Assembly: GCF_003334765.1 (NCBI RefSeq)
Contig: NZ_QOWT01000006.1
DNA length: 64,000 nt
From: Escherichia coli
GTDB lineage: Bacteria > Pseudomonadota > Gammaproteobacteria > Enterobacterales > Enterobacteriaceae
Direction: 5' to 3' (one strand)
Made by a program: the position numbers and the translations under genes. Below, one piece after another: positions 2,129 through 61,957 of the stretch. Within the stretch, counting starts at the first letter, position 1; each line of letters begins with the position of its first letter. Below the pieces are notes generated by a model. It did not search any database. It saw only the letters and a list, made by a program, of their open reading frames with translations, and was not told the DNA's origin.

Positions 2129-2341
2129 TTAGCATACCTGCCGGATATTTTTATTTGTATTAATATTAATTGCATCTCCAACTCCGAGCATATCCATCAT
2201 TAAAAACATTTTGAGATTATAGAATGCCTGTGATAACAACTGAAACATCTGCACAATGTGAATAGTTAGTTTCTTTTCAGAGGAAATGAAATAGACACGC
2301 TGAATGAAAAGGAGAGTGATATAAATTAAAAAACATACCAT
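2129..2341 (-). CDS. yncH: small 70-aa protein of unknown function
   Basis: 70-codon ORF in an AT-rich segment; size and position between the rhs remnant and yncG match yncH. Confidence 0.5.
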   Translation of the reverse strand: MVCFLIYITLLFIQRVYFISSEKKLTIHIVQMFQLLSQAFYNLKMFLMMDMLGVGDAININTNKNIRQVC

Positions 2342-55267: not shown

Positions 55268-58200
55268 TTAGAACGTTTTCTTGAAGTTCAGCATCACGCC
55301 TTTATCGCTGATGCCATCCTCTTTCCAGTTGTACGCATCCAGATTCAGCGAACTTTCTTTGCTGCTGTACTTCACGCCGACGCTTGTCAGGCTATTGATG
55401 CCGCCGCCCTTCTGACCGTCATCGACGTTAAAGTGCTGACTGCCTGCGCCTGCCAGGCTTGCCGTACGCTGGCTCTTCGCGTAGCTCAGGTTCGGCCCGC
55501 CTTCCAGCGTAGCGCTAGCGCTCCAGCCGTCTTTACCTGCGTAGTCCAGTTTCAGCCCGACGATGCTGTCCACCGCCGTTTCGCTGCCACTGTTCATATT
55601 CAGGTTAAAGTCTCCGGCATTGCGCTCCTGATAGCCACCTTCCAGTGTGTGACGCAGTTTTACACCCGCATATGGCGTAACCTTCAGTCCTTCGCTCGGT
55701 TCGAAAGTCTTCGCCCCTTCGCTGCGGAACTCCAGGTACTGCTGTTTCACGTCGGTATCAGCCGTTTTGTTCGTGTTGCCAAATGCAATCGAGCGGCTGC
55801 TGTCAAGGTTGTGAACGTCGTAACGCAAGGCGTTATTCCAGTTCATGCCGTTATCGAACGACATCTGATGTTTCAGGCCAAAAAACTGGCTATAACCGCC
55901 TGTAACGCCATTATCACCCGCTTTCTGCGCACCATCACCATCGAGACGAGCGATACCGTACTCCAGACTCATCGTCTGGCTTTCGCTCAGGTCGATAGTT
56001 TTACGCAATGCCAGCATGTCGTATTCGGTATTATTACCTAACTCGGCACGCGGATCGCCTTTCGCGACAACGTTGAACGCCAGACCGTTACCCACTTTCG
56101 GCGCGGCATCTGCCAGCATACTAAAGCGGTTGCTTAACACGCGCGCTTCGCGGAATACCGTGGTCGCCTGGCTACCGCTGACCTGTTTCAGAGCACTGTT
56201 CAGTTCAGCAGTCGTGCCGACGTTCAGGCTGGTAAACAGTTCGTTGTTGGTGTAACCCGCATCCAGTGCTTTCGCGATGTCATTCACCGAGGCATCTGTT
56301 GCCACATCGGTGTAGGCATTTTTGCTCATGGTGACGTCAACGTTACCGCTGGCATCGGTGCTGCCTTTGGCAGTCCATACCACGGACGTTGAGGTGATGG
56401 CGTCAGCGTCGGTCAGGTTGCTACCTTCCACTACGTTATCAAAACTCACAGTGGTGTCTGCCGTACCAGCGGTAAAGCCCGTGTTAATCTCCACGCCGTT
56501 CATGCTGGCATTGTTAACCTTCAGCTTCCCGGCGCTGCCGTTAACGTTGGTACCGACGACATAGCCGTTGAGGTTGTTCATGCTGCCACCAGCCTCATCA
56601 CTTCCCGACGTTACACTAACCGTATTGGGCTTCGGCACATCCGGCAACGTATAGTCGCCATAATGCACTTCGCTGCTATTACCGTTGTTACCGTTCATAC
56701 CTTCAACATTGATGCTGTCGCCCTGCTTGATCAGTCCAGAACCCGTAACCCCATCGGCAATCACCACCGTGCCGTTGTTAACCACATGACCTACTGTACC
56801 CAGTACGCTAAATGCAAACGAGTCATTGGCGAAGATATTGATGGTGCCGTTGTTTTCGATTACCGCATCCGCCGTGGCGTTGGCATCGAGTTGCATACCG
56901 ATCATACCCGTGTCAGTAGTGCCTGCGGTACCGAGGTTGATGGTGCCATTGTTAACCAGCTGCGCGTTCTTATCACCTTCCATAGCCACAGCACCGGTGC
57001 CGCTGATGTTCATGATGCCGTCATTCTGGGCAATAAAGTTGCTGTGGGTGACTTTCACGGCACTGGCGCTGTCGTGATCGAAGTTGATGACCCCGTTATC
57101 CTGGTTCCAGAAGAAGGCATTCTGATCGCCGGCATTATTAGCGCTGACTACCAGTGACTTCGCAGAAACATCAATCGTTCCGTCATTGATAAAACGACCA
57201 TTTCCGCCCCACATATTAACGGCTCCGTTGTGGGAAGAATTACTGATGTTCATGTGACCGGTATTATAAAGCGTACCGGACTGGTTGATGTGCACAGCAT
57301 TCTTGTCGTTATCAAGAATAAACTCGCCGCGGTTATTGAAAGCTGAATTATTATTAACTTCCAGCATCCCGGTGTTGTTACCCTCACTACTACTTCCGAG
57401 GTTCCAGGTTCCTTCGTTATTTGCCACTGCAGTACCTGTCAGCGCAGCACCTCTCATAATCGCCCCGTCAGTTTGATTATTAAAGACCCCGCCAGCCGAC
57501 ATCATCCGCCCTGTTACACTGCCACTATTATTGAATACCCCCGCGTTCTGCACGATTTTATTGATGGTTCCGGTGTTGTTCACTAACGAACTATCAGCAC
57601 CAGCATTCATGGTAATTTGCGCAGTCATTTCTCCGGCATTATTGAGGATTCCACCGCTAACATCGACGTTATTCGTCATCACCCCGGCATTTTTAATGAC
57701 GGCACCCTTGTCAAGTTTTACTAAGTTATTGATGATGCCACCGCTGGTATTTTCCAGAAGACCGCTTGATACCGTAATTTGATCACCGGAAAGCGTTCCG
57801 CTATTAACAACATTCCCAGCCAGCTTATCAGTCACAGCAGCAGATTTATTTAGCGTTACAGTTTCTCCGCTTCGTGTAATCGTATCGCCACCGGTATAGA
57901 TCAGTGAGGTGAAATCATCTGTATTATTGTACTCATTCCCCGATTGGCACACGCCGAAAGTGCAGATTGTACCATAGTTAACAATTGTTCCTGTGCCATC
58001 GTTATAAAACGCCTGACCAGTACCAACATTGATATTGATAACACCCGTCTGGTCGTTGATAGCAGTACCATGCTCATAAACAGCCATCCCTACCAGAGTA
58101 TTTGCTGCCAGACTATCGTCATAATTACCATTTTTTTCGAGGTTAATCGTCCCCTGGTTAATAACTGTATTGCTGGCGCCATAGGCCGCCATACCTGCGC

Positions 58201-61036
58201 CGGCGTTATAAATAGTTATAACACCGCCCAATTGGTTAATTGCTGTTGCATTTTTCCCTGCACCACTATAACTATCAGTACCAACTCCCACACCTGTACC
58301 GAAGTCAATGGCGCTGTTGCTAGCTATATCTCGCATTGCGGTAGTGTCATTTGCATCTACCCACATAGAATCCAGTGTAATTTTACCCTGATTTTCTGCT
58401 GTTGAATCTGCTATAGCAAGCATGCCGACACTACCACGACCATACAAATCAATGATGCCGCTGTCAGTATTGATAATTGTGCTATTCGATTGAGCGACTA
58501 ACCCTGTTATGCTACTGACATCGTTATTAAAAATAAATGAATTCGATGTGCCCGTTGAATACTTGTTAAATACGCTATGTTGTTCCGTCACTTTACCTGT
58601 GATCGTACCTGCATTAGTGGCGCTCCCTCCGTTAGTAGCCAGTAAAACAATGGGAGACGGTGCCGGATCTTTACCATTTTGTAATAACGAGATCGTGCCA
58701 CTATTTATACCTGTTGTATTTTCACCAGTAACAAAAGCAAAACCTAAATTCTGAATTTCAACAGTACCTTTATTAACAATTTTCGCACCGGAATCAGCAT
58801 AAGTAAGTTCTGGGGTTCTTGTCCCATGATGTTCAAAACTGTCAATATCCTGCATTGTTAGCGTAGCGCCACTGCCAATTTCCAGCAAAGCTTTATCCTG
58901 TACCCGAATAACCCCGGCAAACCCCAGAGGGAATTCTCCGCTGATTGTCGTATCTCCATTCAGATATACCGACGACTCACCACTAACGACAATAACGCTG
59001 GTATAACTATATCCTGTGCGCAAGGAAGTAACCTGCGACCCATCTGCAAGCGCGTTTTTCTCTCCAATCAGTTCAAGTCCACCATTCATATTAACGGTAT
59101 TGCCATCGCCAATCACAACCAGACCTGACGTTTTCTCTGCGCTGCCATCAAATAAATTACTCTGACGAGAAGTAACCTCACTGTCTGATACAACAGTTAA
59201 CTTTCCATCCAGCGTCACGTTATTATCACTGCCGTAAACGTTGATACCCACGGATGGATCGAAGAAATATTCCGCCGCATTGTCTGCGGTTTTATCCTTA
59301 TCAACCAGAACGTTACCAGTGATATTCACTGTATTCGCATCGCCAGAAACGTTTATGCCCGTCGCTTTCTGCCCGACCACTTTTAGATCTTTTGCCGCCA
59401 GCGTCACGCTGTTATTGTTGCCATTAAGATCTACCCCGGTCGAGAAATCGCCAACCTGCATACTGCCTGCCAGCGAAACCTTCCCACTGTTGGTTGTGAT
59501 GCTGAACCCTGTCGCTTCATTGCTAACGTTAACATCACCCGTATTGGATACTGTTGCCCCCTCACCGTTGATGAGCACGCCAATCGATCCAGTATCGGAA
59601 ACAACAATATCTCCTTTGTTGTTAACCGTGCCGTTGTCACCAATGTTCTCAACACCATGCGCACCGCCTGTAACAGTCAGGCTACCATCCAGATTTACAA
59701 TGCCGATATTGCCCGCGATTTTGGTACCCGTGGAATCTTTTCCATCAACAGTGGTTTTTCCACTGTTATTCGCGGTGGCGTCGTTACCGTTGATCTGAGT
59801 GCCGGTGCCGCCATTGGTGATAGTGCTCTCGCCTTCGTTATTGACGATGGCCTGGTCGCCGTCAATCTGGATACCGATGGACTCCGGATCGGTGACGGTC
59901 ATGGTGCCCTTGTTATCCACCGTTGCGCTGTCGCCGGTGATATCAATACCGTGACCGCCGCCGCTGACATCCAGATCGCCGTCCTGAATAACTTTTCCGT
60001 TATTACCGTTGATTTCCGTACCGGTGGAATCCTTGCCGTCAACGGTGGTTTTGCCGTTGTTGTTTGCCGTGGCGTCATCACCATTAATCTGGGTGCCGGT
60101 GCCACCGTTGGTGATGGTGCTCTCGCCTTCGTTATTGACGATGGCCTTGTCACCGTCGATCTGGATACCCATGGACTCCGGATCGGTGACGGTCATGGTG
60201 CCCTTGTTATCCACCGTCGCGCTGTCACCGGTGATATCAATACCGTGACCGCCGCCGCTGACATCCAGATCGCCGTCCTGAATCACTTTCCCGTTATTAC
60301 CGTTGATTTCCGTACCGGTGGAATCTTTACCGTCAACGGTGGTTTTGCCATTGTTGTTTACTGTGGCATTATCACCCGTAATAACAAGCTCACCGTTGTG
60401 ATTATATTGCCACTTCGTTGCGCCATCTGCGCTCACCCCTTCAAGGGCAACAGTGTTATTCGCTTCATCAATCTGCCAAAGATTAATCGTTGCCTTACGA
60501 CCATTGCTATCTTGCAGAGATATAGTCCCGTCAGCATTCTCGGTATAAGTAAAAACTGAATCGCGAATAGTTAACGTTTTTTCTGTTTTATCGAGAATAA
60601 CGTCATTATTAAACGAAACCGGTTTGGGAGGTGTAGGCGTATCATCCGGATCGTCCGGTATTATCTCATCTCCGCCAGGAGTTGGGGGAACTGGAGTGTC
60701 GTCTGATTCATCATCAGGGGGTGTCGGTGGGAGTGGAGAATTGTTGCGATGATGATGATCATCATCGTCGTTTAGTTCCACTACGGCTAAGGCCGTGATT
60801 AACGCAGCAGCGCCTGTGGAAAGCCATGGCATCAGGTTTTGTTCGACTAAAGGAGAGCATTCAGAGGGTAAGCGTTTAAGCTCTTCCGGACTGAGTTTTC
60901 CTGGGTCTGCCGGACAAGTCACATTGGTATTTTTCTTTTCACCTGTGGTGGTTTCTACCTCTGTGATATCTGCCGCCCAACCCTGACCACTCAGAGCTAA
61001 TGCAATACAGGCCGACAATAGAGTTTTCCTTTGCAT
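55268..61036 (-). CDS. ydbA: type V autotransporter (large repeat-rich passenger plus C-terminal beta-barrel), uninterrupted
   Basis: 1922-aa ORF with a signal peptide (MQRKTLLSACIALALSGQGWA), a Pro/Asp-rich linker, a Gly/Asn/Thr-rich beta-helical passenger with tandem repeats, and a C-terminal barrel ending ..NFKKTF. Confidence 0.85.
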   Translation of the reverse strand: MQRKTLLSACIALALSGQGWAADITEVETTTGEKKNTNVTCPADPGKLSPEELKRLPSECSPLVEQNLMPWLSTGAAALITALAVVELNDDDDHHHRNNSPLPPTPPDDESDDTPVPPTPGGDEIIPDDPDDTPTPPKPVSFNNDVILDKTEKTLTIRDSVFTYTENADGTISLQDSNGRKATINLWQIDEANNTVALEGVSADGATKWQYNHNGELVITGDNATVNNNGKTTVDGKDSTGTEINGNNGKVIQDGDLDVSGGGHGIDITGDSATVDNKGTMTVTDPESMGIQIDGDKAIVNNEGESTITNGGTGTQINGDDATANNNGKTTVDGKDSTGTEINGNNGKVIQDGDLDVSGGGHGIDITGDSATVDNKGTMTVTDPESIGIQIDGDQAIVNNEGESTITNGGTGTQINGNDATANNSGKTTVDGKDSTGTKIAGNIGIVNLDGSLTVTGGAHGVENIGDNGTVNNKGDIVVSDTGSIGVLINGEGATVSNTGDVNVSNEATGFSITTNSGKVSLAGSMQVGDFSTGVDLNGNNNSVTLAAKDLKVVGQKATGINVSGDANTVNITGNVLVDKDKTADNAAEYFFDPSVGINVYGSDNNVTLDGKLTVVSDSEVTSRQSNLFDGSAEKTSGLVVIGDGNTVNMNGGLELIGEKNALADGSQVTSLRTGYSYTSVIVVSGESSVYLNGDTTISGEFPLGFAGVIRVQDKALLEIGSGATLTMQDIDSFEHHGTRTPELTYADSGAKIVNKGTVEIQNLGFAFVTGENTTGINSGTISLLQNGKDPAPSPIVLLATNGGSATNAGTITGKVTEQHSVFNKYSTGTSNSFIFNNDVSSITGLVAQSNSTIINTDSGIIDLYGRGSVGMLAIADSTAENQGKITLDSMWVDANDTTAMRDIASNSAIDFGTGVGVGTDSYSGAGKNATAINQLGGVITIYNAGAGMAAYGASNTVINQGTINLEKNGNYDDSLAANTLVGMAVYEHGTAINDQTGVININVGTGQAFYNDGTGTIVNYGTICTFGVCQSGNEYNNTDDFTSLIYTGGDTITRSGETVTLNKSAAVTDKLAGNVVNSGTLSGDQITVSSGLLENTSGGIINNLVKLDKGAVIKNAGVMTNNVDVSGGILNNAGEMTAQITMNAGADSSLVNNTGTINKIVQNAGVFNNSGSVTGRMMSAGGVFNNQTDGAIMRGAALTGTAVANNEGTWNLGSSSEGNNTGMLEVNNNSAFNNRGEFILDNDKNAVHINQSGTLYNTGHMNISNSSHNGAVNMWGGNGRFINDGTIDVSAKSLVVSANNAGDQNAFFWNQDNGVINFDHDSASAVKVTHSNFIAQNDGIMNISGTGAVAMEGDKNAQLVNNGTINLGTAGTTDTGMIGMQLDANATADAVIENNGTINIFANDSFAFSVLGTVGHVVNNGTVVIADGVTGSGLIKQGDSINVEGMNGNNGNSSEVHYGDYTLPDVPKPNTVSVTSGSDEAGGSMNNLNGYVVGTNVNGSAGKLKVNNASMNGVEINTGFTAGTADTTVSFDNVVEGSNLTDADAITSTSVVWTAKGSTDASGNVDVTMSKNAYTDVATDASVNDIAKALDAGYTNNELFTSLNVGTTAELNSALKQVSGSQATTVFREARVLSNRFSMLADAAPKVGNGLAFNVVAKGDPRAELGNNTEYDMLALRKTIDLSESQTMSLEYGIARLDGDGAQKAGDNGVTGGYSQFFGLKHQMSFDNGMNWNNALRYDVHNLDSSRSIAFGNTNKTADTDVKQQYLEFRSEGAKTFEPSEGLKVTPYAGVKLRHTLEGGYQERNAGDFNLNMNSGSETAVDSIVGLKLDYAGKDGWSASATLEGGPNLSYAKSQRTASLAGAGSQHFNVDDGQKGGGINSLTSVGVKYSSKESSLNLDAYNWKEDGISDKGVMLNFKKTF
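59816..60403. repeat. two tandem 294-bp (98-codon) near-identical repeats inside ydbA, flanked by more diverged copies
   Basis: Copy 59816-60109 versus 60110-60403 is about 95% identical by eye; encodes repeated NNGKTTVDGKDSTGTEINGNNGKVIQDGDLDVSGGGHGIDITGDSATVDNKGTMTVTDPES... units. Confidence 0.8.
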
Positions 61037-61197
61037 AATAAATCCTTCTGGCGAATATAAAGAAAGCCGGATGCACTAACCCGACCAATTAGTTATTTAA
61101 AACATAGAAGACATCCAATATTGCCAGTAGATTATTATCTAATCAAACATACTTTCCTATAATTCACAATTATAATTCAGGTGAATAAAAAAAGACC

Positions 61198-61263
61198 ATG
61201 AAATATATAAATTGTGTATATAATATAAATTACAAATTAAAACCACATTCTCATTATAAATAA
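61198..61263 (+). CDS. ynbG: 21-codon micro-ORF (MKYINCVYNINYKLKPHSHYK) in the AT-rich ydbA-paaY intergenic region
   Basis: ATG to TAA seen directly; size and location fit the small protein ynbG as I recall it. There is no strong Shine-Dalgarno, and neither the sequence identity nor expression is verified. Confidence 0.35.
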   Translation: MKYINCVYNINYKLKPHSHYK

Positions 61264-61299
61264 TTATATGATGAAAAAACGGTATGAATTAATACTCAA

Positions 61300-61340
61300 A
61301 TAAATAAAGCAGAGCTTAAACATAACTCTGCTTTATAATT
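61300..61340. terminator. hairpin aagcagag-N11-ctctgctt with T-rich flanks between the micro-ORF and convergent paaY
   Basis: Inverted repeat seen directly; T-rich sequence follows on both strands. Confidence 0.4.
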
Positions 61341-61366
61341 AAAGGGACAAAATAATTTTACATCTG

Positions 61367-61957
61367 TTACTGTTTCGGTCGCAGATTCTCATCAAATACC
61401 AGGCGTTTCCTGCCAGGTTCAATTTCCCGCAATGGCTCGACTTGATGTAACGTCTGCTTACAGCGTGTCACCAGCACCTGGTACTCATGCGTACCCTGCT
61501 TTTTCCATGCCAACTCCTGCTCACTGAGTTCACGAATCGCTTTCGCCGGGCTGCCGACAATCAGGTAATTAGCTGGCATTTCTGCTTTGGCTTTCACAAA
61601 TGCGGATGCACCAACAATGCTGTTCTCGCCAATCACCGCACCGTCCATCACTACCGCGTTCATTCCCACTAATGCATTGCGGCGGATAATGCAGCCGTGA
61701 AGGATAGCGCTATGACCAATATGTCCATCTTCTCCTACAACAGTATCCTGCTCGGGAAAACCGTGCATAACGCAATTATCCTGAATGTTCGCGCCATCTT
61801 TCACCACGATACGACCAAAATCGCCACGCAGGCTGGCATTTGGCCCAACGTAAACGCCCTTGCCGAGAATAACATCGCCGATCAATACCGCTGTCGGATG
61901 GACAAAACTCTCTTCTGGCACAACCGGAGTCAGACCGTCTATCTGATAAATTGGCAT
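61367..61957 (-). CDS. paaY: hexapeptide-repeat protein of the phenylacetate cluster (acyl-CoA thioesterase-like)
   Basis: 196-aa ORF with a left-handed beta-helix repeat; follows paaX with a 19-nt overlap. Confidence 0.85.

Follow-up and report, generated by a model that had tools for sequence, protein, structure and literature searches.

ynbG, a 21-codon reading frame in the AT-rich paaY-ydbA spacer of Escherichia coli, is probably young and unconstrained

Does a reading frame of 21 codons, set in an extremely AT-rich spacer, encode a small protein that selection has kept, a leader peptide, or a chance product of the composition of its DNA? The question is raised by the spacer between paaY and ydbA of Escherichia coli, for which an earlier note on this DNA had proposed either the small protein ynbG or a leader peptide coupled to the silencing of ydbA. 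Here, we examine that spacer within a 64-kb stretch of E. coli DNA (the window, to which all positions refer unless otherwise stated), together with its counterparts in other genomes. Already on record, in the literature and the K-12 annotation, are the gene ynbG, the context of the terminator and the H-NS-bound promoter island. What is new here is the chance expectation of the ORF, its distribution (the segment in 41% of complete genomes, the 21-codon allele in about 21%), the broken alleles, an outgroup that has no such ORF, and the observation that no part of the spacer is less conserved than the ORF. The answer that we favour is that ynbG is probably a young, unconstrained and chance-born ORF, weakly expressed in silenced AT-rich DNA.

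The spacer and its reading frame

The features discussed below are as follows.

61037..61366, no strand: spacer between paaY and ydbA, 330 bp, GC 0.252 (composition)
61034..61049, minus strand: ribosome binding site and start codon of ydbA (AGAAGGA at 61049-61043, start codon at 61036-61034)
61065..61086, minus strand: hairpin in the presumed 5' leader of ydbA, 15 nt upstream of the ydbA Shine-Dalgarno and followed by UUUCUUUAU (folding)
61171..61176, plus strand: TATAAT, candidate -10 element of a putative plus-strand transcript (alignment)
61179..61184, plus strand: AGGTGA, the sole Shine-Dalgarno-like element, 13 nt 5' of the ATG and followed by an A-run at 61187-61193 (candidate, read from the sequence)
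61198..61263, plus strand: ynbG, 21 codons and a stop, ATG start, translation MKYINCVYNINYKLKPHSHYK, 66 bp, GC 13.6%
61304..61336, minus strand: intrinsic terminator hairpin of paaXY, 13 pairs, U-tract at 61303-61294 on the minus strand (terminator scan and folding)

The spacer is limited by the start codon of ydbA (ORF 55268..61036, minus strand, 1922 aa) and the stop of paaY (ORF 61367..61957, minus strand), and its description as a very AT-rich stretch of 330 bp was right, coordinates included. Its GC content of 0.252 is the minimum among all 330-nt stretches of the 64-kb window, whose mean is 0.493, and the core of the spacer (61100-61299) falls to 0.215. Both this AT-richness and the hairpin at 61304-61336 are far above chance expectation. 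Read from paaY to ydbA, the spacer consists of the paaY stop, the paaXY terminator, about 200 bp at 20-25% GC, the leader hairpin, and the ribosome binding site and start of ydbA, and it is 100% identical to that of MG1655.

The 21-codon ORF at 61198-61263 is confirmed, with the translation MKYINCVYNINYKLKPHSHYK, and the micro-ORF is the already known K-12 small gene ynbG (b4674), as had been suggested. The peptide is identical to MG1655 YnbG (YP_002791240.1, 'uncharacterized protein YnbG'), and in the MG1655 annotation ynbG likewise occupies the paaY-ydbA interval, antisense to the two genes. An exact look-up of the peptide returned 'Uncharacterized protein YnbG' (UniRef YNBG_ECOLI) in at least 1000 contigs, and in other genomes the RefSeq/PGAP identifier of the product is WP_010723099.1; a search for b4674 gave nothing relevant. 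The strand, left unstated in the earlier note, is the plus strand, so that ynbG is divergent from ydbA and convergent with paaY. Peptide, spacer, position and antisense orientation are thus the same as in K-12, and the difference from MG1655 lies in ydbA alone, which is intact here (1922 aa) and is there a pseudogene split by IS2 and IS30.

How surprising is such an ORF? When the spacer was shuffled 5000 times with its dinucleotides preserved, 82% of the shuffles held an ATG ORF of at least 21 codons, and therefore the length of ynbG is expected by chance. We counted 13 codons among the 21 that consist of A and T alone, and the peptide is rich in N, Y, K and I, as AT-rich DNA encodes. It is hydrophilic and aromatic (N, Y, K, H), and has no hydrophobic segment, unlike most characterised small proteins of E. 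coli. The NCBIfam scan of the peptide found no family, and the Rfam scan of 60900-61500 at a permissive threshold gave chance-level matches alone (best E = 0.6, far under the gathering scores). In the plasmid collection there were two weak matches to the segment, both in large non-mobilizable E. coli replicons, so that there is no sign of a mobile element.

A type I toxin was also considered for ynbG. The small toxins Ibs, Ldr and ShoB share with it a short intergenic ORF and the potential for overlapping transcription from the opposite strand; however, YnbG has neither their hydrophobic helix nor a repeat family or duplicated locus. The idea is ruled out by the non-hydrophobic peptide, by the single copy of the locus and by the lack of a matching Rfam antitoxin RNA.

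Hairpins, strands and the ydbA leader

The hairpin with T-rich flanks that had been placed at 61300-61340 is present, with 13 pairs at 61304-61336. Its folding energy is -16.0 kcal/mol for the minus strand and -14.2 kcal/mol for the plus strand (z -5.2 and -5.9, respectively, against shuffled sequences), and it passes the terminator scan on the minus strand alone, where it is followed by UUUAUUUAUUU. Where paaY is intact, the counterparts of this hairpin fold at -15.8 to -17.7 kcal/mol, including that of a divergent Escherichia locus (L017, described below) in which the stem sequence differs and still pairs; where the paa cluster is deleted or truncated, the values are -4.8 to -10.8 kcal/mol. 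Because the scan is passed on the minus strand and the strength tracks paaY, the hairpin is read as chiefly the paaXY terminator.

The hairpin is symmetric, with A and T tracts on both sides, and therefore it probably also ends plus-strand ynbG transcripts. The geometry is that of a bidirectional terminator: a stable hairpin with an A-tract and a T-tract lies between the convergent stops of paaY (61367) and ynbG (61263). The likeness to known bidirectional intrinsic terminators is that a single hairpin between convergent stops folds well on both strands. The difference is that here the U-tract is better on the paaY side, which is the sole strand to pass the scan, and that the strength follows paaY; termination itself is predicted.

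In strains 536, Nissle 1917, D8 and Combat2C1 (loci L005 and L012-L014) and in S65EC and 4/1-1 (L004 and L015), the paa cluster is deleted and the spacer abuts ydbL, or no more than a fragment of paaY remains. Mismatches accumulate in the former paaXY terminator hairpin of these strains.

The second hairpin, at 61065-61086, is assigned to the presumed leader of ydbA. Its folding energy is -9.4 kcal/mol for the minus strand vs -2.2 kcal/mol for the plus strand, and exchanges of G-U for G-C pairs maintain it in every allele; in L017 a 23-nt insertion in the loop lengthens the stem. A U-rich run comes after this hairpin, which could serve to attenuate or terminate read-through transcription, or else to stabilise the mRNA. 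The adjacent segment with the ribosome binding site and start codon of ydbA (61034..61049) is 100% conserved in all alleles.

The gene downstream of this leader, which encodes an autotransporter/adhesin, varies in coding length from about 5.0 to 8.5 kb between strains (loci L002-L005 and L012-L015) because of internal repeats. Its RefSeq product names are inconsistent and some of them are plainly wrong ('EntS/YbdA MFS transporter').

Could the translation of ynbG then control ydbA through a nearby hairpin, by attenuation? Upstream of ydbA there is indeed a short ORF close to a hairpin whose flanks are T-rich, much as the very short ORF of an attenuation leader peptide such as pheM lies beside a terminator-like hairpin. 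However, ynbG (plus strand) and ydbA (minus strand) are read in opposite directions, and ynbG therefore cannot lie in the leader of the ydbA mRNA. The hairpin at 61304-61336 stands between ynbG and paaY, on the far side from ydbA, and its strength tracks the presence of paaY; the hairpin nearer to ydbA, at 61065-61086, folds on the other strand alone. Besides being on the wrong strand, ynbG differs from pheM-type leaders in having no alternative pairings that involve the ORF and no regulatory codon run, and it is not conserved with ydbA: the ORF is absent from the 536, Nissle and S65EC types, where ydbA is intact, and from L017, which keeps ydbA. The suggestion of a leader peptide coupled to ydbA silencing is therefore refuted by strand and geometry, and we give attenuation of ydbA by ynbG practically no chance of being right.

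Alleles across genomes and dispensability

Is the frame conserved, then, as a functional peptide would lead one to expect? A 151-nt segment around ynbG was compared with 5426 complete E. coli genomes, with annotation taken from sampled rows. A match of any kind was found in 2246 of the 5426 genomes (41%), at a median of one place per genome, and the remaining 59% are without the segment; about 21% of the 5426 carry the 21-codon allele. By identity to the window, the matches are distributed as follows.

At least 99% identity: 1162 genomes; ORF annotated in 30 of 30 sampled rows
95-99% identity: 7 genomes; none sampled
90-95% identity: 83 genomes; ORF annotated in 2 of 3 sampled rows, as an 18-aa remnant
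80-90% identity: 141 genomes; ORF annotated in 0 of 3 sampled rows
60-80% identity: 853 genomes; ORF annotated in no sampled row

Conservation of the 21 codons across strains, which had been proposed as a check, is largely not found, for elsewhere the alleles are truncated, frameshifted or without the ATG. In the BKQ37E-type allele a 1-nt deletion gives ATG AAT ATA TGA, and the PGAP annotation there is a remnant of 18 aa that starts at an internal ATG. The RIVM_C039629-type allele is frameshifted and has 29 aa, and the alignment shows that the Nissle/536-type and S65EC-type alleles are without the ATG and carry further indels. The strains 536, Nissle and S65EC we take to belong to phylogroup B2, and likewise D8, Combat2C1 and 4/1-1. 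Two outgroups came from a species-level collection of genomes. One is L017, read as a cryptic-clade Escherichia, which is 89.6% identical across paaK-ydbA and keeps paaY, the spacer and ydbA, and has no ynbG ORF. In the other, Pseudocitrobacter faecalis (L018), paaX and paaY are kept together with a ydbA homologue and an AT-rich spacer, which shows no sequence similarity.

Since the frame is not conserved across strains, a conserved function of the peptide is argued against; the identity of the ORF as ynbG is not. In 9 of 9 comparisons the ORF segment was the least conserved part of the spacer, with an identity of 0.44-0.89, vs 0.63-1.00 for the flanks downstream of the ORF and 0.68-1.00 for the ydbA leader in the same nine comparisons. 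Among the alleles that retain the frame, a hand count from the alignments gave 8 nonsynonymous changes and 1 synonymous change over about 5 independent alleles. Taken together, the low conservation of the segment and the 8:1 count give no sign of purifying selection on YnbG, the sample being small and the count indicative, not a formal test. The pattern is that of a de novo ORF, in that homologous DNA is present and the ORF absent in L017 and in the Nissle/536 and S65EC types. As far as the alignments go, the simplest history would have the ATG gained on the branch toward the K-12-like alleles, with drift of the frame ever after.

Downstream of the ORF (61264-61366), the BKQ37E and CAVP773 alleles (L008 and L010) show 100% identity to K-12, but within and upstream of it (61101-61263) they diverge by about 10%, which suggests a possible recombination breakpoint inside their spacers. 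In the Pseudocitrobacter locus, a highly repetitive stretch at about 740-1050 of L018, between paaK and paaX, holds long repeat-peptide ORFs on both strands (units of PSPSGRGRRPHQT...).

The genomes that lack ydbA show what happens to the whole region, for which one further feature is needed.

55277..61365, no strand: indel unit comprising nearly all of ydbA and the whole spacer (BLAST of L006 and L007 vs the window; annotation)

In ydbA-less E. coli, 55277-61365 is missing as one block, and 13 unrelated bases join the paaY stop to the last 9 nt of ydbA, which are left and are followed by pdxI. In these genomes paaY presumably relies on the former terminator hairpin of ydbA (AAACCGCAAC...GTTGCGGTTT). 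A viable reduced-genome strain, DGF-298, is likewise without the paaY-ydbA region that contains ynbG (PMC10652928).

Insertions in ynbG were absent from a TraDIS library, and the gene was called potentially essential (Goodall et al., PMC5821084). In InducTn-seq, the log2FC of ynbG was +0.84 with p = 0.33 (PMC12055562 supplement), and the authors of that study placed ynbG (66 bp, 13.6% GC) among the short AT-rich genes flagged by TraDIS only, which they considered probable false positives (PMC12055562). Potential essentiality is ruled out by the natural deletions, by DGF-298 and by InducTn-seq, and the hints of it are an artefact of DNA that is short and AT-rich. ynbG is dispensable.

A second very AT-rich stretch of the window, at about 1960-2400 with GC <0.30, covers yncH (ORF 2129..2341, minus strand), beside yncG. 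Like ynbG, yncH is among the short AT-rich genes that were called essential by TraDIS alone (PMC12055562).

Silencing, expression and what ynbG may be

The spacer is an AT-rich stretch of at least 300 bp that adjoins a gene of foreign or variable origin, as is the case for the 'promoter islands' of K-12. By our own conversion between genome versions (offset 1,977 bp, from the lengths of the two assemblies), we take the promoter-island entry 1463061_385 to be exactly this spacer. The paaY/ydbA spacer is one of the 78 promoter islands of K-12 (Panyukov and Ozoline, 2013; PMC3661553), which are AT-rich, bound by RNA polymerase and H-NS, and poorly transcribed, and whose adjoining genes are scored as foreign (PMC3661553). 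In Table 1 of that paper the entry reads 1463061_385 paaY(+)/ydbA(+), with 'K' in the H-NS column, that is, binding by ChIP-chip (PMC3661553). The likeness is thus direct, the spacer itself being listed as AT-rich and H-NS-bound, with poor transcript output and a foreign-scored neighbour. There are two differences, namely that the ynbG ORF was not considered in that work (PMC3661553), and that promoter islands were defined by promoter density with PlatProm, whereas our simple sigma-70 consensus scan of 800 bp gave 3 promoter-like sites vs 2.3 expected, which is no excess.

What could transcribe and translate ynbG? The TATAAT at 61171-61176 is the same in 10 of 10 alleles compared, those without the ORF included; the consensus scan scored no promoter there, and the hexamer has neither a good -35 nor an extended -10 element. 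A minus-strand promoter-like site found by the same scan, at 61229-61202, overlaps ynbG and points toward ydbA. As for translation, the earlier remark that there is no strong Shine-Dalgarno holds: the sole candidate is AGGTGA, 13 nt before the ATG, with an A-run between the two.

A 'constitutive ynbG promoter', CTGACA-17-AATAAC, has been published (Shimada et al., 2014; PMC3946193). In the window it maps to 59964-59992 on the plus strand, antisense within the coding repeats of ydbA and 1.2 kb away, and as a proximal promoter of ynbG it is therefore ruled out. That it was assigned to ynbG is probably due only to the pseudogene status of ydbA in K-12. The site may be an antisense promoter inside the gene. 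A second copy with one mismatch lies 294 bp apart from it, at 60258-60286 on the plus strand, also within ydbA.

The conserved TATAAT leads to a different reading of the locus, in which the conserved unit is not the peptide but a plus-strand RNA of about 160 nt, running from downstream of TATAAT 61171-61176 to the bidirectional terminator and modulating ydbA. Its transcription would interfere with the promoter, or the RNA would pair with paaXY-ydbA read-through transcripts, and the ATG would merely have been acquired in the K-12 lineage. In its favour, the identity of the hexamer in all ten alleles concerns the plus strand, the minus-strand mirror not being conserved; the symmetric terminator folds on the plus strand at -14.2 kcal/mol; and the site at 61229-61202, which overlaps ynbG, faces ydbA. 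However, the TATAAT is without an acceptable -35 or extended -10 and is not called as a promoter by the scan, conservation within the spacer is lowest in the stretch from it to the terminator, no Rfam family matches the RNA, and the read counts of ynbG are very low. A single hexamer conserved in some five independent lineages is weak evidence for such an RNA, and we regard this reading as very unlikely.

In RNA-seq of MG1655, ynbG has normalised counts of about 7-18 in each sample (PMC9578424 supplement). Such low counts are consistent with silencing of the locus. In the study of Hemm et al. 2008, candidate small ORFs were reportedly tagged on the chromosome and epitope-tagged small proteins detected, and ynbG is said to have been named after it. 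If that detection holds, ynbG is truly translated in K-12, and a lineage-specific function is then conceivable. The same study is the one cited for ynbG by Goodall et al. (PMC5821084).

Then, could YnbG be a small protein with a function specific to the lineage of K-12-like E. coli, made under some particular condition and acting, like other small proteins, on a larger protein or complex? The gene was annotated and named after an experimental screen for small proteins, the allele is invariant in about 1160 genomes, and an in-frame derivative of 18 aa is kept in the BKQ37E type. Against this stand the loss, truncation or frameshift of the ORF in every other lineage and the absence of the whole segment from 59% of genomes, the position of ynbG as the most variable part of the spacer with its 8:1 ratio of nonsynonymous to synonymous changes by hand count, and a composition that is what AT-rich DNA gives. 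Moreover, the peptide has no NCBIfam match and lacks the hydrophobic segment of most characterised E. coli small proteins, InducTn-seq showed no fitness effect, and DGF-298 is viable without the gene. A function of this kind is unlikely in our view, if less so than the regulatory RNA.

We therefore return to ynbG as a young, unconstrained ORF. In the steps that we propose, it would have originated by chance in stop-poor AT-rich DNA, in a lineage that includes K-12; it would be weakly transcribed from one of many promoter-like sites, with transcription ending at the terminator shared with paaXY; its translation would be inefficient, from an unstructured A-rich leader without a good Shine-Dalgarno; and the peptide would have no selected function. 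Since purifying selection on the peptide is not detectable, ynbG is more a proto-gene than a conserved effector. Two points stand against this reading. Some 1160 genomes share the 21-codon allele essentially without variation, which close relatedness alone may explain, and the frame of the BKQ37E type is kept after a new ATG, which could mean weak retention of the C-terminal 17 residues.

More tentatively, and as a possibility to which we lean rather less than half-way, ynbG may be a within-species gene birth caught in the act, in an H-NS-silenced promoter island, with the further possibility of an older, conserved divergent transcript that influences ydbA. If this is true, the start codon exists in the K-12-like lineage alone, the ORF was truncated, frameshifted or never formed in the sister alleles, and the product is already translated, provided that the published detection of the tagged protein holds.

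For E. coli, the consequence is that neither conservation nor possible essentiality should be attributed to ynbG as a small-protein gene. The gene is confined to about a fifth of the complete genomes, it is the fastest-evolving part of its spacer, and it is removed together with ydbA in most lineages. It is a cautionary case for the annotation of small ORFs in AT-rich silenced DNA and, at best, a modest instance in nature of how ORFs turn over or are born inside one species.
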